Source of the DNA: an uncultured Bacilli bacterium
GTDB lineage: Bacteria; Bacillota_I; Bacilli_A; RF39; UBA660
Length of the DNA stretch: 58,502 nt
Assembly: GCA_944332555.1 (NCBI GenBank)
Contig: CALVKF010000004.1
Coordinates: 1 to 58,502, forward strand
Reading direction: 5' to 3'
A program made the position numbers and the translations under genes. Positions 1-41,699 of this stretch are shown here, one piece after another (positions within the stretch are counted from its first letter, which is position 1; each line of letters begins with the position of its first letter). The notes under the pieces are model-generated. The model searched no databases. It saw nothing but the letters and a program-made list of their open reading frames with translations, and had not been told where the DNA came from.

Positions 1-68
1 CCTGCGCCGATTTCTCGACCTGTCGGTTTTCAAGACCGATCCCTTCAACCGGACTTGGGTATTCCTCC
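1..68 (-). tRNA. tRNA-Ser(UGA), 3' end truncated by window edge
   Basis: Reverse complement GGAGGAATACCCAAGTCCGGTTGAAGGGATCGGT-CT-TGA-AA-ACCGA followed by a long variable arm. Confidence 0.93.
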
Positions 69-249
69 ATGCATTTTTTCTGAATGCATTTAGATTATAA
101 CAAATTGAAAACGGCATGTCAATAAATTTTGTAAAAAAAATCACAATAAGTACTTGAAATAATAAAAAAAACATATTATAATAAAGAAGTCTTATTTAGT
201 TAAGACAGTGCCTTGCCCAAGTGGCGGAATAGGTAGACGCACAGGACTT

Positions 250-926
250 AAGGCCTCTGACATTTGGAAGGCCTTGAGCACTAACTTAGAAATGAGTTAT
301 GTGAATTTGCTCAAATTCGGGGAAACCTTACAGATAACGCTGATGGCAATCCCGAGCCAAGATTTGTGGGGGAATTTTGAGATTGAAATATTCTAAAGAT
401 GTATTGACAGAAATAGTTATGAAATCCAGGAGTAAACGCGAATGCTTGTTGACATTAGGATTAAAACCCTATGGTGGAAATTATCGTGTTTTACAAAAAC
501 ATTTGGATAAATATAATATTGATACATCCCATTTTTTAGGACAAGGCTGGAATAAAAATAATAGTCCAGCTGATATCAAGCCTATCGAAAAATATTTTAA
601 TAACGAAATACCCATTACTAATTATAAGTTAAAAAATCGTATTTTAAAGGAAAAATTAAAACCTTATAAATGCGAAATGTGTGGTTTGAGTCAATGGAAC
701 AATCAAAAAATTCCATTAGAATTACACCATATCAATGGCAATAACAAAGATAATTCATTTGGAAATTTACAACTTCTTTGTCCAAGTTGTCATGCATTAA
801 CTGATAATTATAGAAATCGCAAATAAGGTGTAGAGACTTGACGGGCAATACCTAAGTCGTAAGATATGGTAAAGAGAAAGTCCAGACTACAAACATGTAT
901 GTGGTAGTGAAAACTATAGTAGTAAG
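250..926 (+). ncRNA. Group I self-splicing intron (IC3/trnL type) in the U^AA anticodon
   Basis: P1 with U-G at the splice site; P AAATTCGGGGAAACC (313-327); Q GGCAATCCCGAGCCAA (345-360); R GGTGTAGAGACT (827-838); S AGTCC (879-883); P3 TTGCTC/GGGCAA; terminal G926. Confidence 0.93.
377..826 (+). CDS. Intron-encoded HNH endonuclease (putative homing endonuclease)
   Basis: CEMC...LELHHINGNNKDN...NLQLLCPSCH zinc-binding HNH motif; lies between intron Q and R elements. Confidence 0.88.
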   Translation: MRLKYSKDVLTEIVMKSRSKRECLLTLGLKPYGGNYRVLQKHLDKYNIDTSHFLGQGWNKNNSPADIKPIEKYFNNEIPITNYKLKNRILKEKLKPYKCEMCGLSQWNNQKIPLELHHINGNNKDNSFGNLQLLCPSCHALTDNYRNRK

Positions 927-990
927 AAAATCCTGCGGGTGTAATAACCCGTGCCGGTTCAAGTCCGGCCTTGGGCACCAATAAGAAACT

Positions 991-1016
991 AACCGAATTA
1001 TTTCGGTTTTTCTTTT
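991..1016 (+). terminator. Intrinsic terminator after tRNA-Leu
   Basis: AACCGAA-TTAT-TTCGGTT followed by a T-run. Confidence 0.7.
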
Positions 1017-1071
1017 GGATAAATATTGACTTTTTAAGGAATCTAATCTATTATTTAGATGGAGGTAACTT

Positions 1072-1599
1072 ATGAATTCAAAACAAAAAGTAGAATTAAT
1101 TATTGCGGCATTTTTAATTGTTTGTGGAAGTTTGCTACTTATTTTTCCTTTATTTCATTTTGTAGATGTCAAATTAATATTTTCAATAGTTTTAGGAGTT
1201 TATGCACTTTTAAATCTTATTAAATTCATACTTATTAGAAAGACTAAAGATTATGAAGGATTATTTACAACTTTAGCATCAATTATTGCTTTGGTTTTAG
1301 TATTATTTTTAGATGTTGATAATGTTCCTTGGTATTTAGCTTTATGTTTATTTGTCTGGATTGCTTTAATGTCAGTAATTAAACTTAAGAAGGCCGATTA
1401 TTACAATGACCGAAAAAGTGGGGTCTGGATTTTAGAAATTGTTTGTTTAATATTATTTATTTTAAGTGGTTTACTTACAACAATTAATTTATATTATGAA
1501 AATGATATTCAAGTATTGGTACTCGGTTACTTTTATTTAATACATGGTATACTTGAATTAGTTGATCCATTAACAAATTATTTAATAGGAAGAAAATAA
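1072..1599 (+). CDS. Multi-pass membrane protein (HdeD/DUF308-like)
   Basis: About 6 hydrophobic segments; GGAGG RBS. Confidence 0.6.
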   Translation: MNSKQKVELIIAAFLIVCGSLLLIFPLFHFVDVKLIFSIVLGVYALLNLIKFILIRKTKDYEGLFTTLASIIALVLVLFLDVDNVPWYLALCLFVWIALMSVIKLKKADYYNDRKSGVWILEIVCLILFILSGLLTTINLYYENDIQVLVLGYFYLIHGILELVDPLTNYLIGRK

Positions 1600-1667
1600 C
1601 TTCCTTTTTTTATGAATAAATTTTTTAATATGGTAGTATAATTTGTTAGAAAGAGAGGAATATTATA

Positions 1668-1928
1668 ATGGAAATTCTAAAGGTTTCATCAAAATCTAAC
1701 CCAAGTAAAGTAGCGGGGGCAATAGCAAATATTTATCGCGAAAAAAAGACAGTGGAATTACAAACTGTTGGAGCTGGATCATTAAATCAAGCTATAAAAG
1801 CTATTGCTATATGTAGGGGATTTGTTGCTCCAACTGGGGATAATCTAGTAGTAATTCCGGCGTTTAATGATATTGTAATCAACGGAGAACAAAAAACTGC
1901 AATTAAATTAATTGTCGAAAATAAGTAA
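1668..1928 (+). CDS. spoVS: Stage V sporulation protein S
   Basis: MEILKVSSKSNPSKVAGAIA...GAGSLNQAIKAIAICRGFVAP signature. Confidence 0.95.
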   Translation: MEILKVSSKSNPSKVAGAIANIYREKKTVELQTVGAGSLNQAIKAIAICRGFVAPTGDNLVVIPAFNDIVINGEQKTAIKLIVENK

Positions 1929-1996
1929 ATAAAAAGTAAAGTTATTGCTTTTTTTCTTGGTTTTTAGTATACTTGATATGAATGGAGGTAAAAATT

Positions 1997-2536
1997 ATGG
2001 AATTAAAAGGAAGCAGAACTGAAGCTAATTTAATGGCAGCTTTTGCTGGAGAATCTCAAGCTAGAAATAAGTATACTTACTATGCTTCAAAAGCTAGAAA
2101 AGATGGTTATGAACAAATAGCTGCTATATTTGAAGAAACTGCTAATAATGAAAAAGAACATGCAAAAATGTGGTTCAAAGAACTTCATGGTGGTGATATC
2201 CCTACAACTGCTGAAAATTTACTTGATGCAGCAGAAGGTGAAAACTATGAATGGACTGACATGTATGCTGAATTTGCTAAAGTAGCTCATGAAGAAGGAT
2301 TTGAAAGAATTGCATTTCTTTTTGAAGGTGTTGCTGCAATAGAAAAAGAACATGAAGAAAGATATCGTAAACTTCTTAAAAATGTTGAAGATAAGTTAGT
2401 ATTTAGCAAAGAAGGAGAAGCAATTTGGATTTGCCGTAATTGTGGCCATGTTGTTGTGGGTAAAGAAGCTCCAGCAGTTTGTCCAGTATGTGCTCATCCA
2501 CAAAGTTTCTTTGAATTAAAAAAAGAAAATTATTAA
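1997..2536 (+). CDS. rbr: Rubrerythrin
   Basis: [12 protein letters not shown], ExxH diiron motifs, C-terminal CRNCG...CPVC rubredoxin domain; start chosen after GGAGG. Confidence 0.95.
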
Positions 2537-2567
2537 AATTAAAAAGTTGGTTTCATACCAACTTTTT

Positions 2568-3305
2568 TTATAGCCCTAAAGTAACAATGGCAATAAACAT
2601 ACCCAAAGTAATTGCCGATACTAAAATTAATACCATATTACAATATCCCCTAAAATCACGGACTTTATATAAATTATTAACTTCCGCTTGGTCAGGAAAT
2701 TCTGTAAAATTTTGAGTACTAGGAGCTTTAGGATTAGTTCTAGTTAAACTCATTCCTTTTTCCATTTCTGGACTTTCTTCTTGTACTTGGTTTTGTTTTG
2801 TTATACTATCAACCTCACTGTTAATTATTGTTGCTGCTATACTCATATTATTACCCAAATTTGCCATAATCTCCTTACGAGTTTTTAAGTCTTTTAAAAA
2901 ATCATCTAAATCGGGATTATTAGGATTAGAATCAAATAAAAATTTGTTATTAGCATACATTTGAATTTTTCTTAAATAATCTCTAGCAAATTTCTTTAAA
3001 AATGCTTCTTCATCTTCTGTAATAATCATTTCTTGTGATAACATACTTTTAACTTTTTCTAATTCTGCTTCACTTTGATGATAAAAACCATTTTTTAAAT
3101 AATCAAATATATCTTGTGGTATCATTTGAAAAAATATTGTAGCAATATGATTTATTCCATCTCCAGCATTTTTGATTGAATTGCCATTAAAAGTTAAAAT
3201 ATCACTATCAGGATTATACTGAAAATCTCTTAAATTGGGATATTTTTCTTTGCATTTTTCCAATCTATTAGTTAATTCACTACTTATACTAAATAATTCT
3301 CCCAT
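2568..3305 (-). CDS. Hypothetical protein with C-terminal transmembrane anchor
   Basis: Long ORF; AAGGAG RBS before ATG 3305; hydrophobic C-terminus. Confidence 0.6.
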   Translation of the reverse strand: MGELFSISSELTNRLEKCKEKYPNLRDFQYNPDSDILTFNGNSIKNAGDGINHIATIFFQMIPQDIFDYLKNGFYHQSEAELEKVKSMLSQEMIITEDEEAFLKKFARDYLRKIQMYANNKFLFDSNPNNPDLDDFLKDLKTRKEIMANLGNNMSIAATIINSEVDSITKQNQVQEESPEMEKGMSLTRTNPKAPSTQNFTEFPDQAEVNNLYKVRDFRGYCNMVLILVSAITLGMFIAIVTLGL

Positions 3306-3529
3306 ACAAAAACACTCCTTGTATTCTATTAATAGTTTAGCAAAAATCTTCTTAAAATACAATAGTTAATTTTTTGAAATTTTACTAATTTTTAAAATTT
3401 AGGCGATTTTTGCTAAATTTTTTTAAATTTTGGCCATTTTTTTGTAAAAAACGGCCTCAATTTTTAAAATTGGTGATTTGCATTTATTGTATTTTCTTGG
3501 TAAAGTGATGGTGAAGGGAGGGATGAAGC

Positions 3530-3874
3530 TTGAATCAGGTTATTTTAGTTGGTCGTCTTGTTGATAAGCCAACTGTTATTGAATCTGAAAGTGGCAAAAA
3601 ATACACTACAATTGTTCTAGCGGTTCAAAGAGCATTTAAAAATGCTGATGGTAAATATGAAACAGATTTTTTTAGATGTGTATTATGGAATGGTATAGCA
3701 GCAAATACTAGTGAATATTGTCAATCTGGTGATGTATTAGGCATTAGAGGTCGTTTGCAAACAAGAAGTTATGAAACACCAGAAAAAGAAATTAAATACA
3801 TCACCGAAGTAATCGCTGAAAGAGTCACTTTTTTAGCAAAATGTAGTAAAGATAATGCAGAAGATGCAAAATAA
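3530..3874 (+). CDS. ssb: Single-stranded DNA-binding protein (short form, no acidic DDDLPF tail)
   Basis: MNQVILVGRL...TDFFRCVLW...GRLQTRSY...TEVIAERVTFL OB fold. Confidence 0.9.
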   Translation: MNQVILVGRLVDKPTVIESESGKKYTTIVLAVQRAFKNADGKYETDFFRCVLWNGIAANTSEYCQSGDVLGIRGRLQTRSYETPEKEIKYITEVIAERVTFLAKCSKDNAEDAK

Positions 3875-3930
3875 GTTTACATAAGGTAGAAAATTTGCAT
3901 ATTTATCTATTAGTTAGGTATACTTAATTT

Positions 3931-4302
3931 GTGGGTGATGTTATGCTAAAAGGTGATAGACTTAAAAACGGTCGATTAAATAAGGGATTAACCCAAGAAG
4001 AATTGGGATCTTTAGTGGGAGTGGGTAAATCCGCAATATGTTGTTATGAAAAAGAAACTAGAAATCCCAGTTTAGAGACAATTATTGAATTTATGCACAT
4101 TTTAGGAGTGAGTGCTGATTATTTGTTAGGTACTGATAATTTAATTAAAGTTGTCGAAAATGATGAAGTGCCAGAATATCGGACGATGACTAAAGAAGAA
4201 GTAATGTTTATTGATGAACTAAGAAAAGATAAATTAGTTTATGAAATATTATTTCAAGATCCTAAAAGAGGTTCAGATTTAGTCAAAAAAAGAATTGGTT
4301 AG
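3931..4302 (+). CDS. XRE-family HTH regulator
   Basis: LTQEELGSLVGVGKSAICCYEKETRNPSLE...LGVSADYLLG. Confidence 0.88.
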   Translation: MGDVMLKGDRLKNGRLNKGLTQEELGSLVGVGKSAICCYEKETRNPSLETIIEFMHILGVSADYLLGTDNLIKVVENDEVPEYRTMTKEEVMFIDELRKDKLVYEILFQDPKRGSDLVKKRIG

Positions 4303-4376
4303 AACTAATTGTAGAAATACAATTAGTTTTTTAATATTTGACTTTTTAACTCATATATTTTAATGGGTGAAGTAAT

Positions 4377-5162
4377 TTGAAAACATTTAGAAACATTGGA
4401 CTTCTAGCAATTGTGGCTTTTAGTTTTTTTTATACTGAAAAAATAGCTAATTTGGTTTTGGAAAATAATGAGTTATATAAAACAATTGATGATGTCAAAG
4501 AAGATTATACTGTGGCAAGTATTGATGCCGAAGTTTATGGAGATTATATTATCCCCGGGTTAAATGGGCTAGAAGTGAATGTAAAAGATAGTTATTTTAA
4601 TATGAAAGGATTAAATGCCTTTAATGAATATTATTTATTATATGATTGTATTTATCCGAGTGTATCTTTAAGTGATAATAAAGATAAAATAATTACTCAA
4701 GGTAATAGTAAAAAACAAAGTGTTTCTTTTATATTAGAATATGATAAAAATATAATTGATTATTTTACTAAAAACAATATCGAGGCCAGTGTTTTAGTGG
4801 ATATGAATACATTTGATAAATCTATAGAATTAGAACAATTAAATAATGAAGTAAATAAGTTTAAAGATCTAGATACTTTAATAAATAAATATCAAAATAA
4901 TACTAATATTTGTTATGTTAATGATAAGAATTTGGAAATTTGTAGGGAAAATAATAAATATTTAGTTCAAACAGATAATATAATCAATAATAATACAATA
5001 GTTAGTATTAAAAATAATATAGCTAGTGGTAATATTTATTATGTTAGTAAAAATACGGATGTTTCTAGTATTCAATTAATTATTAATAGTATTTTATATA
5101 AAGATTTAGATATTGTTAGAATAAGTGAACTAATAAGTGAAGAAAACCTTGAAAATAATTAG
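4377..5162 (+). CDS. Membrane-anchored protein, possibly a degenerate YlxY-like polysaccharide deacetylase
   Basis: N-terminal anchor; IPGLNGLEVNVKDSY and GNSKKQSVSF segments recall the YlxY family; catalytic motifs not evident. Confidence 0.45.
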   Translation: MKTFRNIGLLAIVAFSFFYTEKIANLVLENNELYKTIDDVKEDYTVASIDAEVYGDYIIPGLNGLEVNVKDSYFNMKGLNAFNEYYLLYDCIYPSVSLSDNKDKIITQGNSKKQSVSFILEYDKNIIDYFTKNNIEASVLVDMNTFDKSIELEQLNNEVNKFKDLDTLINKYQNNTNICYVNDKNLEICRENNKYLVQTDNIINNNTIVSIKNNIASGNIYYVSKNTDVSSIQLIINSILYKDLDIVRISELISEENLENN

Positions 5163-30880: not shown

Positions 30881-33376
30881 ATGAACGATTTGCTATCTTT
30901 AACAGATTTGTTTAATAGAAAGATTTTTAGAATTCCTGATTATCAAAGAGGATATTCTTGGTGTAACTTGCAATTAGAAGAATTTTGGAGTGATATTTTA
31001 AATTTGTTACCCGATAGAGAACATTATACAGGAATGATATCATTAAAAAAATTAAATAAAAGTGATATAGATAATGAAAAATGGAATGATGAAAGGTGGC
31101 TTTTAGATAATTGGAGTTATGATGCATATCATATTGTGGATGGTCAACAAAGACTTACTACATTTATTATTTTAATTAATGAAATAGTAAATTTTTACAA
31201 AAAAATAAATCCAGATAAAGATTTAAGTCAAATTTTTGTAAATAGTATTCCTTTGAATAAAATACAAGAAGAATTTTTAGTAGTATCTAAACCGGATTCA
31301 GCAGATATTATAAAAACATATAAATTTGGTTATGAGATAGATAATCCTAGTTATGAGTTTTTTAAACATAAGATTTTGGGGGAACCTAATTCGGGGATTT
31401 TAGATGAAACATTTTACACTTTAAATTTAGAAAAAGCTAAAAATTTTTTTGAAGAAAAAATTAATGAGGAATATAATGAAAATGGAATAGCTTCTATAGA
31501 AAATATTTTTAAAAAAATAACACAAAAAATGAAATTTAACATGTATTATATTGATAATGATTTTAATGTTTATGTAGCATTTGAAACAATGAATAATAGA
31601 GGAAAAAGGCTTTCTAATCTTGAACTTTTAAAAAATAGATTAATATATTTGTCTACTATTTTCGATGAAGATGAAGATGACAGAAAAGCTGTTAGAGAAA
31701 ACATTAATAAAACATGGAAAGATGTTTATAAATATTTAGGTATGAATAAAAACAAACCTTTAAATGATGAAGATTTTTTGCAAGATCATTGGATCATATA
31801 TTTTGGTTATACTAGGTCTAATAAAGTAACATATTCTTCATTTTTATTAAATGATTATTTTAATCAAAATAATATTTCTGATAAATATATTATAAAATCA
31901 TCGGAAGTATCTGATGATTACCAAATGGAAAATATTGATGTATCAGAAATTGAAGATTTTGAAGAAGATGAAACAATAGATAATAAAAAGGAAAAATTAA
32001 CATTAAATAGTATTAGCAAATATATAAATAGTGTAAAATCTTTAATACCTTATTGGTATATTTTACAAAATCCTGATGGTTTTGATGTTGATTCTTCTAT
32101 TGATTCTTCTATTAAAGAGATGCTAAAAAAATTAAATCGATTACAATTTGTATATTTTAAACCCCTTATAACTGTTTTACTTTATAAAAATGATATTAGT
32201 GTTGAAAAGAAGGTTGAATGTTTACAAAAAATAGAAAGGTATATATTCTTACATTTTAGATTAGTTAATTATCAATCAACATATAGGAATAGTTTTTTCT
32301 GGAATTTATCACATAAATTTTATATAAATGAGGTTAATGTTAATGATGTTATTAATGAACTTAATAAAATAGATTATTTAGCAGATAATAAAGTTGCTAA
32401 TATGAGTAATATCTTGAATAATATTAATAGATTATTTAAAAATTATAAAGGATACTATTCATGGCCTGCTAGAACTTATTTTCTTTATGAATATGAACTA
32501 TATTTAATGGATAATCAAGGAAATCAAAGAATATATCCGGAAAATTTGTTTAAAAAAGATGACAAAGATAAAGTGTCAATAGAACATATTTATCCTCAAA
32601 CAGATACTGATAAATATTGGGTAGATAGATTTGGCAATTATACGGAACTGGAACAAAAACATTTAAATGGTTCTTTAGGTAATTTATTACCATTGTCATT
32701 GAGTATTAATATAAAATTACAAAATTATTCTTTTGATGATAAAAAGAATGGTAAAGATGGTAGAAGAGGATACAAAGATGGTTCTCATTCGGAAGTAGAA
32801 GTTTCTAGATATGATGAGTGGACTCCAGATACTATATTAGATAGAGGATTAAAATTAATTCAATTTATGGAAAAAAGATTTGATTTTATTGTTCCTAATA
32901 AGGCCGAGAGAATAAAAATGTTGGGCTTAGATTTTATGATTGATGAAAATGATGAAACTATAGATGTTACTATCCCTGAAATAAAGGAAAATTTAAATCA
33001 AAATAGTAAGAAAGTCTCATATTCTGAAGAAGATTATATTAGATTATCATCTAATACAAAAAATCCTCATTTGCTTGAAATTTATAAAATGTTGGATTCA
33101 TACATTTTAAGTTTGGGTGATGATATAAAAAAGAATTCAACAAAACATTATATTTCTTATACTAATGGTAAGTCATTTGTTGAGTTTCATTTTTATAAAA
33201 AATATTTACATTTAACAATTATGTCTGGCGAATATGATGATTCACAAAATAAAATAAAAAAGTTAGATGAACGATATAATTGGTCTAATACTAATGCATT
33301 GGACATTTATGAGGATGATGATATAGAATATATTAAATATCTGTTAAAGCAAAGTTATGAAAAGACATTTAAATAG
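30881..33376 (+). CDS. GmrSD-family (DUF262-DUF1524) modification-dependent restriction protein with DUF5655-like C-terminus
   Basis: IPDYQRGYSW, VDGQQRLTT, FETMNNRGKRLS, SIEHIYPQ...LGNLLPL...N. Confidence 0.9.
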   Translation: MNDLLSLTDLFNRKIFRIPDYQRGYSWCNLQLEEFWSDILNLLPDREHYTGMISLKKLNKSDIDNEKWNDERWLLDNWSYDAYHIVDGQQRLTTFIILINEIVNFYKKINPDKDLSQIFVNSIPLNKIQEEFLVVSKPDSADIIKTYKFGYEIDNPSYEFFKHKILGEPNSGILDETFYTLNLEKAKNFFEEKINEEYNENGIASIENIFKKITQKMKFNMYYIDNDFNVYVAFETMNNRGKRLSNLELLKNRLIYLSTIFDEDEDDRKAVRENINKTWKDVYKYLGMNKNKPLNDEDFLQDHWIIYFGYTRSNKVTYSSFLLNDYFNQNNISDKYIIKSSEVSDDYQMENIDVSEIEDFEEDETIDNKKEKLTLNSISKYINSVKSLIPYWYILQNPDGFDVDSSIDSSIKEMLKKLNRLQFVYFKPLITVLLYKNDISVEKKVECLQKIERYIFLHFRLVNYQSTYRNSFFWNLSHKFYINEVNVNDVINELNKIDYLADNKVANMSNILNNINRLFKNYKGYYSWPARTYFLYEYELYLMDNQGNQRIYPENLFKKDDKDKVSIEHIYPQTDTDKYWVDRFGNYTELEQKHLNGSLGNLLPLSLSINIKLQNYSFDDKKNGKDGRRGYKDGSHSEVEVSRYDEWTPDTILDRGLKLIQFMEKRFDFIVPNKAERIKMLGLDFMIDENDETIDVTIPEIKENLNQNSKKVSYSEEDYIRLSSNTKNPHLLEIYKMLDSYILSLGDDIKKNSTKHYISYTNGKSFVEFHFYKKYLHLTIMSGEYDDSQNKIKKLDERYNWSNTNALDIYEDDDIEYIKYLLKQSYEKTFK

Positions 33377-33561
33377 TGTAGAAATAAAAATCTACATTTT
33401 TTGTTTTTAACATTATTAAATAATTTATAAAAATTTAAAATTATGGTATAATGAAAAAGAAAAGTTGGACATAATGAAGTTAAAAATAAAAAATGCAAAA
33501 AAAGCTTTATTAAAACAACTTACTAAAATAGAAATTAATAGATTTAATGATTGGAGTAAAA

Positions 33562-34260
33562 ATGGAAAATGTAAAAAATGCAGAAACTTTTAGAAGAAAA
33601 TTTTTAGAGTTTGAAAATCTTACTACACACGAAGAAGATAACGATGAAAAATTAGCAAGTAAAATTAAAGAATTGAAAAATAAACGAAGAGAACCATATT
33701 ATTCAAAATATGATTTTATTAATTTTTGTAGAGATTGTAGAAATAGAATATCGCATGATGGGTATGAAAATGATTTTATTTTTTATAGTGAAGAAATGAT
33801 AAAAAAATTAGAAGATGTTATTGAAGAAATAAAACATCCTTATAAAGTTTATGATAAAGCTACAAAAAATGTATATTCTGCTAATTTAAATGATAATGTC
33901 AGAAAAGTAATGTTCGAAATGACAAATAAAAACTATACACATATTCCTATTTACGATAATGATAAGTTAGTAGGTGTATTTAGTGAAGGTGTATTATTTA
34001 ATTATTTATATAAAAATCAAATTGTAGAAATAGATGACGATACAATATTTGCTGATATTTTAGATTTTATAAGTTTTGATAATTTAAAGGAAATTATAAA
34101 ATTTGTGGATAGAAATAAATTATATGATGATGTGTGTTTAGAGTTTGTTAATGAATTTAAAAAAGGAAGCAAATTATCATGTGTTTTAGTTACTCAAACG
34201 GGTAAACCACAAGAAAAGGTAATAGGTATTCTTACATCTTGGGATATACTTGGAAGATAA
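33562..34260 (+). CDS. HEPN-like domain plus tandem CBS domain protein
   Basis: RNRISH (RxxxxH) in a helical N-terminus; YTHIPIYD..KLVGVFSE and VLVT..G....VIGILTSWD CBS pair. Confidence 0.75.
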   Translation: MENVKNAETFRRKFLEFENLTTHEEDNDEKLASKIKELKNKRREPYYSKYDFINFCRDCRNRISHDGYENDFIFYSEEMIKKLEDVIEEIKHPYKVYDKATKNVYSANLNDNVRKVMFEMTNKNYTHIPIYDNDKLVGVFSEGVLFNYLYKNQIVEIDDDTIFADILDFISFDNLKEIIKFVDRNKLYDDVCLEFVNEFKKGSKLSCVLVTQTGKPQEKVIGILTSWDILGR

Positions 34261-34293
34261 TTTGATATGAAATATTAGAATGGAGAAATAATT

Positions 34294-37200
34294 ATGACTG
34301 TAAATGAATTATTAAAAACAATGAATAATGTTTTTGGAAATGAACGAGATAAAGGAACTGCATTTGAAAATTTAATAAAAATATATTTAGAACACGAACC
34401 AGCTTACATGTCTATGATATCAGATGTGTGGACTTGGAAAGAATTTCCATATAGAGATAATATTGGAGATACAGGGATTGACTTAGTTGCAAGAACTTAT
34501 GATGGACAATTTTGGGCAATACAATGTAAATTTTACAATGAAAATTATGAGATTTCTAAGGGAGATATTGATACTTTTTTGGCGACTTCATCAAAATATT
34601 TTTTTGTTAATGGTGAAAAAACAAAATTTGATTATAGGATTATTGCATCTACAACTACTCACTATAATCATATTGCAGAACAAACGCTGGAAAACCAAGA
34701 CCCTCCAGTTGGAAAAATTGGATTAAGTGATTTACAGGAATCTCAAATAGATTGGGTGAATACATTTAGGTTTAATCAAGAAAGAAAAATTCAAATGGTA
34801 GAACCAAAAAAGATAAAAGATTATCAACAAGAAGCGATTGATGCTGTTATTAATGGTTTTCTTAATAATGATCGTGGAAAACTGATCATGGCATGTGGAA
34901 CAGGAAAAACCTTTACAAGTTTAAAAATTGCCGAAAAACAATTAAATGGTAAGGGAAATGTTTTATTTTTGGTTCCTTCAATTGCACTTGCAAGTCAAAC
35001 TTTATTTGAATGGGCTTCTCAAAGCAATTATTTATACAACGCTTGTGTAGTATGTAGCGATAATAAGGCTTCTAAAGGTGATGAATCTGTAGATTTAGGA
35101 ATTCCATCTACAACAAATGTACAAAGATTATTAGAATGGTATAATAATTCAAAAAAATTAAATAGAGATATGAATTTTATCTTTTCTACATATCAGTCAA
35201 TTGATGTAATTTCTAAATTTTCAAAAGAGATAGATTTAGAGTTTGATTTGATAATTTGTGATGAAGCGCACAGAACAACTGGTGTAACATTAAGTGATGA
35301 AGATGAAAGCTATTTTGTAAAGGTACATGATAATAATTTTATTAAGGCTAAAAAAAGATTATATATGACTGCTACTCCTAAAATTTATGGCGATGGTGTT
35401 AAAGGAAGAGTTAAGGAAGTAAATGCTGTATTATGTTCAATGGATGATGAAAGTATTTATGGTCCAGAATTTTATAAATTATCTTTTAGTGATGCTGTAA
35501 AACGAGGTTTATTGACTGATTACAAGGTTTTGGTGTTAGCAGTTGATGAAGAATATGTAAAAATAGAGTTGCAAGATTTATTAAAAGATGAAAATCATGA
35601 GATAAAATTGGATGACTCTGTTAAGATAATGGGATGTTGGAATGGCTTGTCAAAAATATCCACTTGGGATGAAAAAGAAAATTTCTTATCTGATCCAGCA
35701 CCTATGAAACGGGCTGTTGCCTTTTGTAATAGAATAAAAGATTCACAAAAATTAGTAGAAATGTTTAAAATAATTCAAGAACATGTTAGAAGTGAATACA
35801 GGCCCGACAAAGAAAAACTTGTAAAAATTGATATTAAACATGTTGATGGTACTTTTAATGCTTTAGAAAAAAAAGAAAGAATCAATTGGCTAAAAGACGA
35901 TATTAAAGATGGAGAATGTAGAATACTTTCTAATGCGAGGTGTTTATCAGAAGGTGTAGATGTTCCAGCATTAGATGCAGTAATCTTTCTTAATCCAAGA
36001 AGTAGTATGATAGATATTATTCAATCTGTTGGAAGAGTAATGAGAAAGGCAGAAGGAAAAAAATATGGGTATGTTATACTACCAATTGGAGTTTCTGCAT
36101 CAGAAAATCCAGAAGAAGCATTAGACAATAATGAAAAATATAAGTTAGTTTGGGAAGTATTACAGGCTTTGAGAGCCCATGATGATCGTTTCAATAATAC
36201 TATTAATAAGATAGATTTAAATAAGAAAAAACCAGATCAAATTGAAGTTATTGGTATAGGTTCATCTAAAGAACAAGATATAGATAATGGAACTAAAACA
36301 ATTAAAGTGAAAGATAATATAAAGCAAAAAGTTCAATTAACTCTTGATTTAAAAACTTTTGATGAATGGAAGGATTCAATTTATGCAAAAATGGTAAAAA
36401 GAGTTGGTTCTAGAATATATTGGGAAATGTGGGCTAAAGATGTCGCTGATATTGCAACATCTCATATGAAAAAAATTAAAGAACTTTTAGCTACTGATGA
36501 CCCCAAAATAAAAAAAGCAATTACAGAATTTATAGAAGGTTTACGACAAAACCTTAATAATTCCATAACTGAAGATGATGCGATAGAAATGTTGGCAGAA
36601 CATATGATTACTAAACCAGTGTTTAATGCATTATTTGATCAATATGAATTTGTAAATAACAATCCTGTTTCTCAAACAATGCAAAAAATGATAGATATTT
36701 TAGATAAACAATTTACGGAAGAAGAAAGAAAAAAACTTGATGAATTTTATGAAAGTATAAAAGAAAGAGCCCAAGGTATTGATAATGCTATTGGTAAGCA
36801 AAAAATAATCCTTGAATTATATGAAAAATTCTTTAAAACTGCATTGCCTAAAGAAGTAGAAAAATTAGGAATTGTATATACTCCGACAGAATGTGTAGAT
36901 TTTATTATTAATAGTGTAGAGTATTTAATGAAAAAAGAATTTGGTAAAAGTCTTTCGGACCATGGAATACATATAATAGATGGCTTTACGGGAACGGGAA
37001 CTTTTATTGTTAGATTATTACAGAGTTGTATAATTAAGCCTCAAGATTTATTATATAAATATACTAATGATATTCACGCTAATGAAATAGTGTTACTTGC
37101 ATACTATATTGCGGCAATTAATATTGAAGAAACTTTTCATGAGTTAAATAAGAATAAAGAGTATATTCCATTTGATGGAATTGTATTAACAGATACATTT

Positions 37201-39069
37201 CAATTATATGAAGACAGTAATGAGCATGAATGGACAAAAAATATAAATGAATTAGCGTTGCCACAAAATAATGAAAGAGCATTAAAACAAAGAGAACTGC
37301 CTATAACTGTTTGTATTGGGAACCCACCTTATTCAATTGGCCAAAAGTCTGCAAATGATAATGCTCAAAATTTGTCTTATCCCAAATTGGACTCTAGAAT
37401 TACAAATACTTATGCTGTTAATTCTAAAGCAAATTTAAAAAAAGGATTATATGATTTATACATTAAAGCATTTAGGTGGGCTTCTGATAGAATTAAGGAT
37501 AATGGGATTGTTGCGTATATTACTAATGGTTCATATATTGATAATCAGGGTATGGATGGATTTAGAAAATGTTTGCTAGAAGAATTTACATCAATTTATG
37601 TGTTTAATTTGAGAGGAAATCAAAGAACATCAGGAGAAACATCTAGAAAAGAAGGCGGAAAAATTTTTGGTAGTGGTAGTAGGACACCAGTTGCTATTAC
37701 ATTTTTAATAAAAAATAAAGAAAGAAATCATGATAATTTTATTCATTATTATGATATTGGAGATTATTTAACTAGAGAACAAAAATTAAATATAATAAGT
37801 CGTTTTAATAATGTAGAAAATATTAAATGGAATCATATTGTTCCTGATGCAAATAATGATTGGATAAATAAAAAAAATTATCAATTTAAAAATTTAGAAC
37901 CAATGGCCCCAATTAATAAAAATGATATGAAATCAAAATCATATTTTACAAATTATGCAATTGGTTTAGTAACTAATAGAGATAATTGGGTCTATAATTT
38001 TAGCAGAAAAAAATTAAGTAAAAATATTAATGTTATGCTATGTAATTATGAGAATGAAAGGTTAAAAATGTTAAATGACAATAATTATTCAATTACAACC
38101 AATGAAACTTTGATAAGTTGGTCAGCTGGGCTAAAAAAGAAGCTAAATCAAAATGTTAAAATAGAGTTTAATCAAGATAAAATACTAACATGCCTTTATA
38201 GACCATTTTGTAAAGAATATTTATATTATGACAATAACATTATTGAACGACCAGGTAAACTGGCTAATTTACATCTTGCATATAACAAAGTTATTTGTGT
38301 ACATGGTTTTGGTGGAAGTAAAGGCTTTTCTTGTTTGATAACAGATAAATATAATGATCTTCAGCTCATTGAAAATGGTCAGTGTTTTCCCTTGTACTGG
38401 TATGAAGAAAAACATAATAATACATTATTTGGAGAACAAAATATTATTAAACACGATGTAATAACCGATTATATAAAAAATAAAATAGAAAAACAATATT
38501 TAAAAGAAATAGATAAGGAAGATATATTTTATTATGTATATGGAATTTTACATTCTGAAGATTATAGAAATACATTTGCATCTGATTTAAAAAAATCTTT
38601 ACCAAGAATACCAATAGTTGATAAATATGAAGATTTTGTTGCATTTAGTAATGCTGGAAAAAAGCTAGCCGATTTACATTTAAATTATGAAAGCGTAAAG
38701 CTTTATTCTAAGTGTAAAATTTATATATATCCAGGAGCAAATTATAAGGTAACAAAAATGAAATTTGGAAAAAGTAAAAATAATAATAAAGATAAAACGA
38801 TTATTGAATATAATGAAAAAATAACAATTTCTAATATACCTGAAAAAGCTTATGAATATATAGTTAATGGAAAATCGGCAATAGAATGGATTATGGAGAG
38901 ATACGCAATTACAACTGATAAAAAAAGTGGTATAGTAAATGATCCAAATGATTGGTGTAAAGAAGTAAATGATGAAAAATATATATTTAATTTATTATTA
39001 AAAATTATTAATATTTCCATTAAAACAGTGGATATTGTAAATTCTTTACCAAAATTAAATTTTGACTAG
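34294..39069 (+). CDS. Type ISP restriction-modification enzyme (LlaGI/LlaBIII-like)
   Basis: Mrr-like GIDLVA...AIQCK; SF2 helicase MACGTGKT, DEAH, TATP, QSVGRVMR; MTase FTGTGTF, GNPPY; C-terminal TRD. Confidence 0.95.
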   Translation: MTVNELLKTMNNVFGNERDKGTAFENLIKIYLEHEPAYMSMISDVWTWKEFPYRDNIGDTGIDLVARTYDGQFWAIQCKFYNENYEISKGDIDTFLATSSKYFFVNGEKTKFDYRIIASTTTHYNHIAEQTLENQDPPVGKIGLSDLQESQIDWVNTFRFNQERKIQMVEPKKIKDYQQEAIDAVINGFLNNDRGKLIMACGTGKTFTSLKIAEKQLNGKGNVLFLVPSIALASQTLFEWASQSNYLYNACVVCSDNKASKGDESVDLGIPSTTNVQRLLEWYNNSKKLNRDMNFIFSTYQSIDVISKFSKEIDLEFDLIICDEAHRTTGVTLSDEDESYFVKVHDNNFIKAKKRLYMTATPKIYGDGVKGRVKEVNAVLCSMDDESIYGPEFYKLSFSDAVKRGLLTDYKVLVLAVDEEYVKIELQDLLKDENHEIKLDDSVKIMGCWNGLSKISTWDEKENFLSDPAPMKRAVAFCNRIKDSQKLVEMFKIIQEHVRSEYRPDKEKLVKIDIKHVDGTFNALEKKERINWLKDDIKDGECRILSNARCLSEGVDVPALDAVIFLNPRSSMIDIIQSVGRVMRKAEGKKYGYVILPIGVSASENPEEALDNNEKYKLVWEVLQALRAHDDRFNNTINKIDLNKKKPDQIEVIGIGSSKEQDIDNGTKTIKVKDNIKQKVQLTLDLKTFDEWKDSIYAKMVKRVGSRIYWEMWAKDVADIATSHMKKIKELLATDDPKIKKAITEFIEGLRQNLNNSITEDDAIEMLAEHMITKPVFNALFDQYEFVNNNPVSQTMQKMIDILDKQFTEEERKKLDEFYESIKERAQGIDNAIGKQKIILELYEKFFKTALPKEVEKLGIVYTPTECVDFIINSVEYLMKKEFGKSLSDHGIHIIDGFTGTGTFIVRLLQSCIIKPQDLLYKYTNDIHANEIVLLAYYIAAINIEETFHELNKNKEYIPFDGIVLTDTFQLYEDSNEHEWTKNINELALPQNNERALKQRELPITVCIGNPPYSIGQKSANDNAQNLSYPKLDSRITNTYAVNSKANLKKGLYDLYIKAFRWASDRIKDNGIVAYITNGSYIDNQGMDGFRKCLLEEFTSIYVFNLRGNQRTSGETSRKEGGKIFGSGSRTPVAITFLIKNKERNHDNFIHYYDIGDYLTREQKLNIISRFNNVENIKWNHIVPDANNDWINKKNYQFKNLEPMAPINKNDMKSKSYFTNYAIGLVTNRDNWVYNFSRKKLSKNINVMLCNYENERLKMLNDNNYSITTNETLISWSAGLKKKLNQNVKIEFNQDKILTCLYRPFCKEYLYYDNNIIERPGKLANLHLAYNKVICVHGFGGSKGFSCLITDKYNDLQLIENGQCFPLYWYEEKHNNTLFGEQNIIKHDVITDYIKNKIEKQYLKEIDKEDIFYYVYGILHSEDYRNTFASDLKKSLPRIPIVDKYEDFVAFSNAGKKLADLHLNYESVKLYSKCKIYIYPGANYKVTKMKFGKSKNNNKDKTIIEYNEKITISNIPEKAYEYIVNGKSAIEWIMERYAITTDKKSGIVNDPNDWCKEVNDEKYIFNLLLKIINISIKTVDIVNSLPKLNFD

Positions 39070-39098
39070 AAAAACATTTTAAAATATTGGGAGTACAT

Positions 39099-41699
39099 AT
39101 GGGAAAAAATTCAAATAGAGATGATTTTAGTAAAAAAACAATTGAAATATTATGCAAAAGAGTTAATGCTATTTGCTCTAATCCGGAATGTAATAGAGGA
39201 ACTCTTGCAGCTTCTAGTGAACCAAATAAATTTGTTAATACAGGGGTTGCATCACATATTTGTGCTGCTGCTCCTGGTGGTCCGAGATATGACGCAAAAA
39301 TGACTTTTGAACAAAGAAGCAGTATCGATAATGGTATTTGGCTTTGCCAATCTTGTGCTAAATATGTTGATAGTGATGAAAAAAAATATACTGTAGAATT
39401 GCTACATAGCTGGAAAGAACAGGCGGAATCCAGAGCACAAAAAGGACTTGTAAAACCTATATATGAACCCTCAAAAAAGGATATGATGATATTTAACATT
39501 GTTGAATCAACACAATATAATGTGGTTTTTAATGATGAAGATAGAGATAATAATTATTCGGATTTATATAAGGATTATATAAATAAATTTAAAGAAAATA
39601 ATAATTATCTATATTCGGTGTTATTTGATAAGAATGTTAAGTACAGCGAAACTGATAATATATATACGAAATTTAGTAGGCAAATTTTAAATTGGATTAT
39701 TGGTAAAGGCAAATTTCCTGATTGTTTAAATGATTTTTATAATAAACTTTCAAAGGATTATCGTTTTACAGAAAAATCTATTATTAAAAAGAGATGGCAA
39801 GCTAATTGCGAATATTTTGCTAGTAATGTTGAAAGAGCCTATGAAATTTATAAAGAAATGTTGGACAAAGTAATAAATTCAAAAAAAATTCCAGTATGGT
39901 TTAAAGATGATATTTTTATTGATGGAAGAAATTTGAGTATTCATATAGATAATATCAATCATACATTTAATCTTAATAATGTTTTTCAAGACGAAATAAA
40001 CAAAAATATTCATAAACTTGCATTTCCAGTGGTTGATAGAATAAAAAATGATATGTATGAACAATCAATAAAAAATATATTTAACATTAAGAATAAATCT
40101 GATAAAACTTTGATTCTTGGTGCAGGAATAGAATACATCTTAAACTCTATTCAAGAGTTAACTTATATTGCTATATTATATGGTTCAATTACTCATTTGA
40201 GATTAGTTAGACAAGTATTTTCTGATATTATGTATTTGTATTCTGATTGCTATGAAGATGATGAATTTTATGCTTTAACTTTAAAACTGAAATTGTTGGC
40301 TGGATTATTTGATGATTATAAAAAAATATATAATAAAATAAAATATAAATATAAATTTGTCAATAGTAAGAAATTTATTGGTGAGCTATATGGTACAAAG
40401 AAATCATTATTATCTTTTGATAATAATTTGTTTGATTGTTTATTCTTTGAAATATATGGTAGAAATGTAAATGAAAAACAATTTGAAGAATTAGAAAATA
40501 GTATATTAAAAATTTTGAATTCTATTACAGGAGATATAAACCCTGATATAGTTGATAAAGCCTTTAATTCAATACCTAATAATTTGCATAGAATGCATAA
40601 TAAAAAATCTTTGTTTCAAGTAATGATAAAATATATAGAAAACAATTATTCTAGATTTTTTTCTAGTTTTAATATTATTATAAATAATATAGAAATCAAT
40701 GAATTAACTGAACAAGAAAAAAATGAATTTGTATTACTCATTAAAAAGTGTTCTGATTGTGAGAAAGGACAATTTGATCTTAGTTCAGTTTTAAAAAAAA
40801 TAAAAAAGCTTTTAGATTGTGATACATATAGTTTATTATGCGATAAATTCGAATCAAAAGATGATATAATTAAGCATTTGATAAATAATGATATGGAAAA
40901 TGCTTTATTAGAAATTGTCGATTTCAAAATAAGTCAAGCAAAGCAGCGTGAAAAAAATCCTAATGAACATTTTAGATATAAATACAATTATAATTTAAAT
41001 GGTTTGATATCAAATAAAAGTATTTTTGTAAATAATAGTCTAAAAAATAAAATGTTATATCTTGCAAAGTTAGTGTTATTATCTAAAAATCAATACGCAT
41101 ATGAGAAAAAAGACATTATTGGTTTATTATGCCATTTGATAGCTCAAAAGAAAGTTAATAAGCATGAGATTAAAAAAATAGTTGGCGCAATACAGTTGGA
41201 TTCGGCAGTAGATTTTTTTGATGATAATCAAGATAACAATATAGAAATTTATGTTATGATGTTAAAATTTTTTTTAGGTAATATTAGATTGAAAGAATAT
41301 TTAGAAAAATTATTAACATATGAAATAGAAAAAGATAATTTATTAAATGATATATTAGATTGTATAAATATTATTTTTAGTTACTATAAGTGTAATAAGT
41401 ATTTAAAATATATTTATCCTATTTATCGTTTTGCAATAAGCAGAAGAGAATTTGAAATAACTAAAAGGGCATTGGTTTTGTCTAAATTGTTTATTAATAC
41501 ACCATTTTTTAAAGAGATTGAATTTGATTATAAGAATATAATTATGTATAACAATTATAATGAAATTTTTATAATTGTACAAATAGTTAAGGGTTTTACA
41601 AATGTTAATATGATGACTTTTGAAAATATTATTAAATTACTTGAGAATCATGAAAATTATAATGTTAGATATATAACCAAGAAAATCTATGATAACTAA
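39099..41699 (+). CDS. N-terminal HNH nuclease fused to a long alpha-helical region (putative defence protein)
   Basis: CSNPEC...GVASHICAAAPGGPRYD...NGIWLCQSCAKYVD; no Walker motifs seen in the remainder. Confidence 0.75.
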   Translation: MGKNSNRDDFSKKTIEILCKRVNAICSNPECNRGTLAASSEPNKFVNTGVASHICAAAPGGPRYDAKMTFEQRSSIDNGIWLCQSCAKYVDSDEKKYTVELLHSWKEQAESRAQKGLVKPIYEPSKKDMMIFNIVESTQYNVVFNDEDRDNNYSDLYKDYINKFKENNNYLYSVLFDKNVKYSETDNIYTKFSRQILNWIIGKGKFPDCLNDFYNKLSKDYRFTEKSIIKKRWQANCEYFASNVERAYEIYKEMLDKVINSKKIPVWFKDDIFIDGRNLSIHIDNINHTFNLNNVFQDEINKNIHKLAFPVVDRIKNDMYEQSIKNIFNIKNKSDKTLILGAGIEYILNSIQELTYIAILYGSITHLRLVRQVFSDIMYLYSDCYEDDEFYALTLKLKLLAGLFDDYKKIYNKIKYKYKFVNSKKFIGELYGTKKSLLSFDNNLFDCLFFEIYGRNVNEKQFEELENSILKILNSITGDINPDIVDKAFNSIPNNLHRMHNKKSLFQVMIKYIENNYSRFFSSFNIIINNIEINELTEQEKNEFVLLIKKCSDCEKGQFDLSSVLKKIKKLLDCDTYSLLCDKFESKDDIIKHLINNDMENALLEIVDFKISQAKQREKNPNEHFRYKYNYNLNGLISNKSIFVNNSLKNKMLYLAKLVLLSKNQYAYEKKDIIGLLCHLIAQKKVNKHEIKKIVGAIQLDSAVDFFDDNQDNNIEIYVMMLKFFLGNIRLKEYLEKLLTYEIEKDNLLNDILDCINIIFSYYKCNKYLKYIYPIYRFAISRREFEITKRALVLSKLFINTPFFKEIEFDYKNIIMYNNYNEIFIIVQIVKGFTNVNMMTFENIIKLLENHENYNVRYITKKIYDN

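Follow-up and report, generated by a model that had tools for sequence, protein, structure and literature searches.

The window, a 58,502-nt stretch of DNA, comes from an uncultured member of the Bacilli (Bacillota), which agrees with the Firmicute-type host that an earlier note had read from the sequence. Near its left end lies a tRNA-Leu(UAA) gene that is interrupted by a group I intron, and nested in this intron is an ORF for an HNH endonuclease. All features described below are on the forward strand.

With long introns allowed, ARAGORN called tRNA-Leu(taa) at 215–980 with an intron of 677 nt and a spliced length of 89 nt, and wrote the call as 'gactt-Intron-aaaat'; run without the intron option, it returned zero tRNAs in positions 1–5000 of the window. 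Exon 1 (215–249) ends with GGACTT, the last T being U34, and exon 2 (927–980) begins with AAAATCC and ends with an encoded CCA. The intron (250–926) is thus inserted between U34 and A35, as are the trnL(UAA) introns designated 'Leu.3Ug'/IC3. A promoter-like site (TTGAAA, 17 nt, TATAAT; 154–182), known from the pattern match of a consensus scan alone (11/12 matches), is located ~33 nt upstream of the gene, and a terminator-like hairpin followed by a T run (991–1016), also from a consensus scan, is located downstream. Two more long-intron calls made by ARAGORN in this genome (SeC on C3 and Gly on C9) were both false.

In the congeners with an uninterrupted gene, the 5' half of that gene is 100% identical to exon 1, over the full length of the exon in 22 of them and over positions 5–37 in the 23rd (G005); the extra copies in G064 are 95–97% identical to it. 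In the three uninterrupted congener genes that were read at the sequence level, GGACTT is directly joined to AAAATCC, which bears out the U^AA insertion site proposed in the earlier note. The whole genome (93.9% complete, 64 contigs) yielded 28 plain tRNAs and no second tRNA-Leu(UAA), and TTA is the main Leu codon, accounting for 684 of the 1127 Leu codons that the contig's long ORFs contain. Because the interrupted gene is the sole tRNA-Leu(UAA) gene in a 94%-complete genome with this codon usage, the intron must splice. In the intron-bearing congeners, the interrupted gene is again single-copy.

Secondary structure and class of the intron

The helices of the intron were derived from an alignment of 12 related sequences. 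P1 (247–278; 247–258 with 266–278) is paired at all positions in 12/12 sequences and includes one compensatory pair; the U249.G276 wobble, which marks the 5' splice site, is likewise present in 12/12 sequences. It is followed by the P2 hairpin (279–303), with three compensatory pairs, and by a block (307–356) in which RNAalifold placed the 5' strand of P3 (307–312), P4 (316–322/350–356) and P5 (326–327/345–346 and 331–333/340–342). The pairs of this block are invariant within the genus and lie in blocks common to a cyanobacterial trnL intron. The 5' strand of P6 (362–368) pairs with its 3' strand (818–824) across the HNH ORF, and compensatory changes are found at 4/7 of these pairs. The next block (835–882) contains P7 (835–839/878–882), which was assigned by hand, together with the 3' strand of P3 (843–848) and P8 (849–852/868–871 and 856–858/863–865), both of which came from the alignment. 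The fifth pair of P7 is T-A here, C-G in this cyanobacterial trnL intron and G-C in a cyanobacterial tRNA-fMet intron. The last element (886–926) consists of P9 (886–890/919–923), which encloses a GAAA hairpin (904–908/913–917) with two compensatory pairs, and the terminal G926, which precedes the 3' splice site and exon 2. Compensatory pairs are found in P1, P2, P6, P8 and P9, and the group I core and the P6 pairing that the earlier note had described are both present.

That note had also recommended a search with group I covariance models. The Rfam scan of the intact 3-kb region gave no match. When the intron was scanned as two halves, RF00028 matched one with 29.1 bits (E 5.8e-6) and the other with 15.0 bits (E 0.093); the ORF, an insert of 450 nt, accounts for the missing match and for scores that stay under the gathering threshold of 50. 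A natural ORF-less congener copy, which, the P6 loop aside, is 99–100% identical to the window, scored 61.8 bits against the full RF00028 model (cut-off 50), and it is through this copy that the group I catalytic core is recognized.

Alignment of the intron with its trnL(UAA) counterpart from a cyanobacterium gave identity at 134 of 215 positions (62%), with long shared blocks. We describe the intron as similar to the 'Leu.3Ug'/IC3 introns, a term of resemblance and not a formally derived IC3 subgroup label. The ribozyme shares only 50–71% identity with the trnL introns of other phyla, and a close donor was therefore not found. Among the four genomes searched with RF00028, a cyanobacterial bin and a Thiotrichales genome gave no match. 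BLAST with the ORF-less gene matched three of 61 cyanobacterial genomes, one at the core of a tRNA-fMet intron and one at the 3' end of a trnL(UAA) intron with exon 2, but DNA similarity to cyanobacteria is too low for BLAST to serve as a survey of introns.

The intron-encoded HNH protein

The ORF (377–826) encodes 149 residues and occupies the P6 loop, intact as the earlier note had stated. It starts with TTG, a short spacer after a GGGGGA ribosome-binding motif, and ends with a stop codon at 824–826; its last three codons overlap the 3' strand of P6. The protein matches Pfam PF01844 with 24.0 bits (cut-off 21.4), HNH-type families are the only ones in Pfam that match it, and no named Pfam domain was found in its N-terminal 95 residues. 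It also matches phrog_10822 (6e-42). The His-His, Asn and His residues and the two CxxC motifs expected of a PF01844 protein are present, and C99, C102, H117, H118, N126, N130, C135, C138 and H139 are retained across 28 relatives. Against solved structures, a profile search returned HNH matches that were all weak, McrA ranking first at E 0.11. The protein is of the phage F-TflIV type: it shares 39% identity over 142 residues with the F-TflIV-annotated protein of Salmonella phage EH7, a T5-like phage.

The median dN/dS of the ORF is 0.11 (31 pairs), a value that indicates purifying selection on the intact copies. The window allele differs from that of the congener G066 at 3/450 positions, all of them non-synonymous: the window protein has Asn83, Asn88 and Ser137, that of G066 Ser83, Thr88 and Asn137, and the Ser83/Asn137 combination is the common one. 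Two of the three differences are carried by the congener G024, and in the RNA runs described below, two are present in all four runs and the third in one (X17). The window protein has Ser at the nearly invariant Asn137, and this copy may thus be in an early stage of decay.

RNA evidence for excision of the intron

RNA data were available as assembled metatranscriptome contigs, not as reads, from four runs. In two of the four runs, from two studies, a contig runs from position 926 directly into position 250; the exact joint is ambiguous by 2 nt, and no extra letters are inserted. This is the junction of a circularized intron of full length, closed exactly at its predicted ends, and it shows that the ribozyme acts in vivo at both predicted sites. 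It does not show exon ligation, since intron circles of full length can also arise by a route in which the exons are not joined (described in PMC6274462). No RNA contig extended outside 202–983 in any of the four runs and none covered the whole gene; the limitation of RNA cover to this interval is a weak hint. Joined exons left a single possible trace, the loose end AATCCTGCGG found at 251 in run X18; since congeners with uninterrupted genes, present in that sample, would account for it equally well, we rejected it as evidence of ligation. A joint from 357 to 870 in one run (X16, side 26) was also set aside, as it probably belongs to a related intron of another organism.

Distribution within the genus

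The presence/absence survey and the comparison of intron and host phylogenies that the earlier note had proposed were carried out on 56 species genomes of the genus, all congener genomes being metagenome bins. The intron with the ORF is present in 11 (8 with an intact and 3 with a broken ORF), an ORF-less intron in 4, an intron fragment alone at a contig end in 2 and an uninterrupted gene in 23, the other 16 being undetermined. On an rpoB tree, the 'empty' state requires 10 changes, 8 of which are forced by well-supported branches; presence is patchy, and the counts do not separate gain from loss. Of 395 genomes from other genera of the class, none contained the HNH family.

The divergence of the introns conflicts with that of their hosts. 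G000 and G066 are 84.3% identical in rpoB and 99.6% identical in the intron (667 columns), and G066 and G024 are 82.7% identical in rpoB and 99.8% identical in the intron. The reverse conflict was found between G054 and G021, with 97.0% identity in rpoB and 92.6% in the intron. When the G066 contig was aligned with the window, exon 1 and the intron were 99.3–100% identical and the flanks 86–90%; flank identity at this level was checked in one pair, G000/G066, on the same contig. Introns that are 99.6–99.8% identical in genomes with 83–84% rpoB identity and, in the pair checked, 86–90% identical flanks point to recent horizontal homing between species of the genus. In G024, identity is 100% within the intron and has dropped to 91.9% by 3001–4200 (2–3 kb downstream), a gradient such as co-conversion would produce. 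Since the genomes are metagenome bins, G005 has two rpoB genes and the G066 contig lacks window positions 917–1018, chimeric assembly could explain some of the conflict between intron and host.

The intron shows the signs of a homing intron, namely intron-less alleles, ORF-less or decayed copies and a history conflicting with that of the host. The suggestion in the earlier note that the intron may still be mobile gains support from these coexisting states, the patchy rpoB tree, the near-identical introns and the RNA circle.

Relatives in other phyla and phages

Relatives of the HNH protein lie inside tRNA-Leu(UAA) introns at 40 of the best 80 among at least 576 public loci, in at least six phyla. 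The 80 loci were scored by a strict pattern test, which replaced the isotype and anticodon labels of ARAGORN because these were often a few bases wrong, and which may miss true cases such as those cut by contig ends. Some of the relatives are antisense within the intron, and three arrangements were observed: sense in L6 (Bacilli), sense near the 5' end (Bacteroidota) and antisense (Pseudomonadota, Acidobacteriota and Saccharimonadota). One jumbo phage also has an HNH gene in a trnL(UAA) intron.

The rarity implied by the earlier note applies to the literature and not to public sequence, where the arrangement is common across phyla and occurs in a phage as well. We found no publication that describes a tRNA-Leu(UAA) intron with an HNH gene. 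The closest publication, Williams 2020, states that introns longer than ~400 bp may hold genes, and its phylum counts (Table 1) or supplementary files may already list tRNA-Leu introns of Firmicutes.

Discussion

These results are best explained jointly by a self-excising trnL(UAA) group I intron whose P6 loop has been colonised by an F-TflIV-like HNH homing endonuclease gene, a reading that we hold with high confidence. The mechanism would be conventional. The tRNA-Leu(UAA) gene would be transcribed from its own promoter as a single precursor, from which the ribozyme would excise itself at 249|250 and 926|927 and join the exons into an 89-nt tRNA. Part of the intron RNA would be converted into the full-length circle, and the intron RNA would also serve as the mRNA of the HNH protein, with a weak TTG start. 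When intron-bearing DNA, transferred between species by some route, meets an uninterrupted tRNA-Leu(UAA) gene, the HNH protein would cut or nick it near the anticodon-loop site, and repair off the intron-bearing copy would install the intron with some flanking DNA.

It could be argued that the intron is real and splices but is immobile, having been inherited vertically and lost many times, with the HNH gene as a decaying passenger. Broken ORFs in 3 of 11 copies, four ORF-less introns, the Ser at Asn137 of the window allele and change counts that cannot tell gain from loss all fit this view; nevertheless, we consider it improbable, because vertical inheritance accords poorly with introns that are 99.6–99.8% identical between genomes of 83–84% rpoB identity, with ORFs of G000 and G066 that differ at only 3/450 positions despite flanks of 86–90% identity on the same contig, with the reverse conflict between G054 and G021 and with the low dN/dS of the intact ORFs. 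The interrupted gene could also be a dead copy, UUA being read by a tRNA-Leu(UAA) gene missed in the assembly. tRNA genes are often left unassembled, and the genome is an incomplete one in 64 contigs. A dead copy would hardly be expected, however, to retain intact exons that match the uninterrupted congener genes at 100% identity, covarying helices and RNA contigs that end at the gene borders and include an intron circle, or to recur as the single copy in other intron-bearing congeners, and we regard this possibility as the most improbable of those considered here.

Nor is it at all probable that the HNH protein assists splicing as a maturase, or defends the host as a nuclease, instead of acting as a homing enzyme. 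Some intron-encoded endonucleases of other families do double as maturases, according to PMC2647301, but no observation on the present intron points that way; G020 keeps the same ribozyme without the ORF (99–100% identical outside L6) and three other congeners have broken ORFs, so the protein is dispensable. Moreover, in phages its full-length relatives stand alone between tRNA genes and carry the annotation of F-TflIV, a site-specific endonuclease.

The homing intron proposed here shares features with several known systems. F-TflIV (hegA) and the HNH proteins of T5-like phage tRNA clusters belong to the same protein family and are likewise associated with tRNA genes, but they are free-standing between tRNA genes and 227 residues long, whereas the window HNH is nested in a tRNA intron and is related to the phage genes without sharing their arrangement. 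The activity of F-TflIV was reportedly described by Akulenko in 2004. F-TflIV has been placed in the McrA/Mob group of HNH proteins (PMC5714182). The HNH genes of I-HmuI, I-TevIII and I-PfoP3I likewise lie in peripheral loops of group I introns, and they promote homing (PMC3943268, PMC3428280); their introns, however, are in protein-coding phage genes, and I-HmuI is assigned in PMC5714182 to another His-Me subgroup (PF05551/PF13392). The Synechocystis tRNA-fMet intron with I-Ssp6803I is a bacterial anticodon-loop group I intron with its own homing endonuclease (PMC3984707, PMC3943268), but the tRNA is different and the enzyme is of the PD-(D/E)XK type according to PMC3943268, whereas the ORF described here matches only HNH-type families in Pfam. 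The trnL(UAA) introns of cyanobacteria and plastids share the host tRNA, the insertion point (CUU|AAAA), the helix order, the core blocks and the variability of P6 with the present intron, which differs in its HNH gene in L6 and in its host, a gut member of the Bacilli; those described in PMC4033280, in section 11 of PMC3984707 and, for the Oedogonium plastid, in a table of PMC2442088 are ORF-less. The tRNA-Leu(UAA) introns of Beggiatoa and Thiomargarita are further examples of trnL(UAA) group I introns outside cyanobacteria, but the intervals of ~350 nt given in PMC4853749 are too short for an HNH ORF of this size.

If the relatives in other phyla and phages are considered together with the genus, it is possible that HNH genes colonised an 'ancient' trnL intron several separate times and now move it between species, phyla and phages, the ORF-less intron of cyanobacteria and plastids being a disarmed remnant of a mobile family. 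We offer this wider reading tentatively, as somewhat less probable than its opposite. The tRNA-Leu(UAA) intron is the textbook old intron, common to cyanobacteria and plastids and described as ORF-less; it has long been treated there as a model of vertical inheritance, and its sideways movement has been argued over for decades. If the wider reading holds, the gut genus is a natural population that contains every stage of the homing cycle. A 2014 review stated in its section 11 that there was little evidence for horizontal movement of bacterial introns between species (PMC3984707). The genus described here has an endonuclease-armed tRNA-Leu(UAA) intron, and four states of the site (empty, armed, disarmed and decayed) coexist in it; these states, together with near-identical introns in diverged genomes, open horizontal homing to direct tests, in the laboratory as well as in metagenomes. 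As standard tRNA finders miss an intron-split tRNA gene (PMC8450103), genomes of this kind seem to lack an essential tRNA.

Structure of the split tRNA-Leu(UAA) gene

Ordinary tRNA finding (ARAGORN without introns) gave no call for a tRNA gene at the start of the window. With long introns allowed, ARAGORN called a tRNA-Leu(taa) at 215–980, which is 89 nt long after removal of a 677-nt intron and has the junction string 'gactt-Intron-aaaat'. On the plus strand, as are all intron features below, exon 1 spans 215–249, the group I intron 250–926, and exon 2, with CCA encoded, 927–980. A consensus scan placed a promoter-like site at 154–182 and a terminator-like hairpin at 991–1008, followed by a T run, on the same strand, which would bracket the gene as one unit. 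On the minus strand of window 1–122, the first 70 bases resemble, by eye, a Ser-type tRNA gene truncated by the contig end; ARAGORN made no call in this stretch, and a perfect promoter-like site (12/12 matches) lies upstream of it at minus strand 122–94.

An Rfam scan of the intact 3 kb around the gene returned no match because the 450-nt ORF divides the group I core. Searched on their own, the two parts of the intron both matched RF00028 below its gathering score of 50: the 5' part scored 29.1 bits (E 5.8e-6), the 3' part 15.0 bits (E 0.093). The whole model was matched at 61.8 bits by the ORF-less, 232-nt version of the intron in another species of the genus (G020); apart from the P6 loop, this version and the window are 99–100% identical.

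Twelve copies from the genus were aligned, the ORF columns were removed, and the consensus was folded. The consensus fold contains the anticodon stem (242–246/931–935), P1 (247–258/266–278), in which U249.G276 marks the 5' splice site, P2 (279–288/293–303), P3 (307–312/843–848), P4 (316–322/350–356), P5 (326–327/345–346 and 331–333/340–342), P6 (362–368/818–824), P8 (849–852/868–871 and 856–858/863–865), and P9 (886–890/919–923), which encloses a GAAA hairpin. P7 (835–839/878–882) was assigned by hand, and the terminal G of the intron is at 926. Compensatory pairs among the 12 copies number one in P1, three in P2, four of seven in P6, one in P8, and two in the P9 hairpin; P3–P5 are invariant within the genus, so these core helices are uninformative in either direction. 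The earlier note, made from the sequence alone, had recognized the split gene, an intact HNH ORF in the P6 loop, and the P6 pairing; ARAGORN returned the same gene, the ORF list the same ORF, and the consensus fold exactly the same pairing.

The HNH ORF

The ORF (377–826) opens with TTG and encodes 149 aa, and its final three codons form the 3' strand of P6. The protein scores 24.0 bits with the Pfam HNH model (cut-off 21.4), and phrog_10822, a phage HNH family, covers its entire length (6e-42). The window allele differs from the ORF of the congener G066 at 3 of 450 positions (window 621, 636, and 786), all non-synonymous: N83S, N88T, and S137N, given as window residue to other copies. The congener G024 shares two of the three differences, and at 621 and 786 the other letter is present in all four RNA runs. 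Considering these differences, including Ser at the nearly invariant Asn137, we lean modestly toward the window's own copy still being an active endonuclease. Purifying selection acts on the intact ORFs of the genus: across 31 pairs their median dN/dS is 0.11, although dS was often saturated.

Splicing and RNA evidence

The assembly as a whole (1.33 Mb at 93.9% completeness) contains 28 uninterrupted tRNA genes, and no second tRNA-Leu(UAA) gene was found in it. Of the 1127 Leu codons in this contig's long ORFs, 684 are TTA; the intron therefore has to splice. The stretch occurs in runs from 12 studies, mainly chicken-gut or bird metagenomes, and six of the runs are metatranscriptomes. Four metatranscriptome runs from three studies were compared over 100–1100 as assembled contigs, and no RNA contig cover was found beyond 202–983. 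In two of the four, from two studies, a contig joins 926 directly to 250 with no extra letters, the joint being ambiguous by 2 nt because AA stands on both sides. The joint marks an intron circle of full length, closed exactly at the two predicted splice sites. Passages of one paper describe group I circles as forming either after splicing or by an alternative route in which the exons stay unligated, and those of the cyanobacterial trnL intron as reportedly one nucleotide longer (PMC6274462). Given these two routes, the circle indicates in vivo ribozyme chemistry at both sites, not exon ligation. A contig loose end resembling ligated exons was indistinguishable from the uninterrupted genes of congeners and was set aside. 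In run X16, one RNA contig jumps 358–869 (joint 357/870), its shorter side spanning 26 letters; it probably derives from another organism's related intron, aligned at 90% likeness.

Intron states in the genus

Matches to the window's gene were surveyed in 56 species genomes of the genus. Full-length introns with the ORF region ("armed") were present in 11 and ORF-less introns in four (232, 259, and 236 nt; the fourth truncated by a contig end). Two retained the intron 3' part only, at a contig end, and in 23 exon 1 was joined straight to exon 2 ("empty"; three confirmed by reading the sequence). Exon 2 alone was matched in four, and no trnL match was found in 12. The ORF is intact in 8 of the 11 armed introns; it is broken by a 1-nt deletion in G024, by a 2-nt deletion in G021, where a zinc-motif Cys is also replaced by Phe, and by Trp58 TGG to TAG in G048. 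The homing cycle is a model of invasion, fixation, decay, and loss, and the states seen are the set expected from it. No member of the HNH family turned up at E ≤ 1e-15 in the 395 genomes scored from the rest of the class, and the element therefore looks acquired.

Other tRNA genes of the genus are also split. In the window's own genome (G000), outside the window, the sole tRNA-Thr(UGU) gene found (L002 1333–1642, i.e., G000:C6:21840–22149) carries an ORF-less group I intron of 234 nt after nucleotide 36, the 3' half of which is 83% identical to window 828–928. In the congener G008 (locus L010, 1458–1775 and 1783–2485), the tRNA-Thr(UGU) intron is 627 nt long with a different HNH ORF (126-aa open frame) in the P5 region, and the adjoining tRNA-Tyr(GUA) gene is split by a 234-nt intron. 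Several tRNA introns and at least two lineages of HNH gene thus coexist in the genus. An intron-split tRNA-Gly proposed by ARAGORN on another contig of the window's genome proved to be a tRNA-Gly(GCC) 5' fragment about 212 nt upstream of a complete tRNA-Gly(GCC) gene (G000:C9:8981–9289); the fragment may have been left behind by an element that inserted into the tRNA gene.

Evidence for horizontal movement of the intron

The host tree was made from 2 kb of rpoB from 39 genus genomes (40 rows); all compared genomes are metagenome bins, and one (G005) has two rpoB genes, which leaves some room for chimeric assembly. The empty state needs 10 changes on this tree, eight of them forced by well-supported branches, and 15 of 500 label shuffles gave as few. 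Several intron-bearing species adjoin empty ones. Intron and host divergence conflict in both directions: the introns are 99.6% identical (667 columns) between G000 and G066 at 84.3% rpoB identity, 99.8% between G066 and G024 at 82.7%, and 99.7% between G054 and G052 at 91.6%, whereas those of G054 and G021 are 92.6% identical at 97.0% rpoB identity.

The strongest evidence for horizontal movement is the contrast within the G066 contig, where exon 1 and the intron are 99.3–100% identical to the window, against 89.6% for the 211 upstream bases and 86–88% for 1.6 kb downstream. Between G024 and the window, identity is 100% in the intron and then drops in steps, through 98.9, 97.8, and 94.9% to 91.9% by 3001–4200 (2–3 kb downstream), and G020 has a similar drop away from the intron, which is what co-conversion of flanks in homing would leave. 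The G066 contig (G066:C57, locus L145 around 2775/2776) goes from window 916 straight to 1019; it lacks 917–1018, so that the final 10 nt of the intron are missing along with the whole of exon 2 and the terminator. No match to exon 2 was found elsewhere in that genome, and the gap reflects a true deletion or an assembly error. From the identity conflict, the flank gradient, the patchy states, and the circle junction in RNA we infer mobility, and they support the suggestion of the earlier note that the intron may still be mobile. The mechanism is the ordinary one of a homing group I intron.

Relatives in other phyla and in phages

A cyanobacterial tRNA-Leu(UAA) intron (L153) is identical to the window intron at 134 of 215 aligned positions, with long blocks in common. 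The fifth pair of P7 is T-A in the window but C-G in that intron and G-C in a cyanobacterial tRNA-fMet intron. The window ribozyme is 61% identical to the cyanobacterial one and 50–71% to those of other phyla among the best 80 of at least 576 HNH loci, and no close donor was found among the copies compared.

These loci came from a scan of one genome per species; a metagenomic protein collection contained 531 relatives of like length, some with gene calls extending upstream into the translated intron core, with the same position in L6 (the loop of P6) at 58% identity. Under a strict site test (5-nt stem plus CTT, intron ending in G, AAAA plus complementary stem, enclosing the HNH match), 40 of the best 80 of the at least 576 loci sit within a tRNA-Leu(UAA) intron at the same site as in the window; the remaining 40 fail it, some being truncated by contig ends and some lying in other contexts. 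Among the 40 that pass, with distances measured from the 5' splice site, the ORF is sense in Bacillota (3 loci, about 130 nt), Bacteroidota (10, 0–75 nt, upstream of the ribozyme core), Planctomycetota (1, 158 nt), and one locus with no phylum name (66 nt), and antisense in Pseudomonadota (15, 103–127 nt), Acidobacteriota (9, 100–110 nt), and Saccharimonadota (1, 101 nt). At two antisense loci, RF00028 matched the strand opposite the HNH weakly (27.7 and 26.1 bits).

Relatives also occur in 229 phage records, all below 60% identity. In the best, a 595-kb uncultured phage, a tRNA-Leu(taa) gene whose intron is 700 nt long encloses the HNH in sense orientation. The relative in a T5-like Salmonella phage (annotated hegA / F-TflIV; 39% identity over 142 aa) is free-standing between tRNA genes, and in a Gordonia phage one lies between tRNA-Leu and tRNA-Glu. 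Part of one source places F-TflIV in the McrA/Mob HNH group, separate from I-HmuI (PMC5714182), and part of another cites T5 F-Tfl enzymes as tRNA-gene-cluster homing endonucleases (PMC2330249).

Cyanobacteria and α- and β-proteobacteria are the bacterial groups for which reviews record tRNA group I introns (PMC4033280), and the endonuclease case named in excerpts of two others is I-Ssp6803I in tRNA-fMet (PMC3984707, PMC3943268); tRNA-Leu(UAA) introns are reported in Beggiatoa and Thiomargarita (PMC4853749). Among 80,413 bacterial genomes, Williams (2020, bioRxiv 10.1101/2020.01.27.920355) found 5292 tRNA genes split by introns, treated 'Leu.3Ug' as classical, and noted that introns over ~400 bp may hold genes. 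We found no published HNH gene in a tRNA-Leu(UAA) intron, although the per-phylum table and supplements of that survey may already list Firmicutes. The rarity implied by the earlier note holds in the literature only and not in public sequence, where several phyla and one phage share the arrangement. Compared with print, the novel points are an armed version of this classic trnL(UAA) intron, the occurrence of that version in a gut Bacilli genus with all homing-cycle stages, the evidence of its recent transfer between species, and the varied placements of one HNH family in this intron across phyla.

Elsewhere in the window, 30881–41696 holds three large ORFs in succession (831, 1591, and 870 aa). 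NCBIfam gave no match for two of them; the middle one has a weak helicase/restriction-type match (TIGR04095, 86 bits; cut-off 600), and the stretch may be a defence locus.
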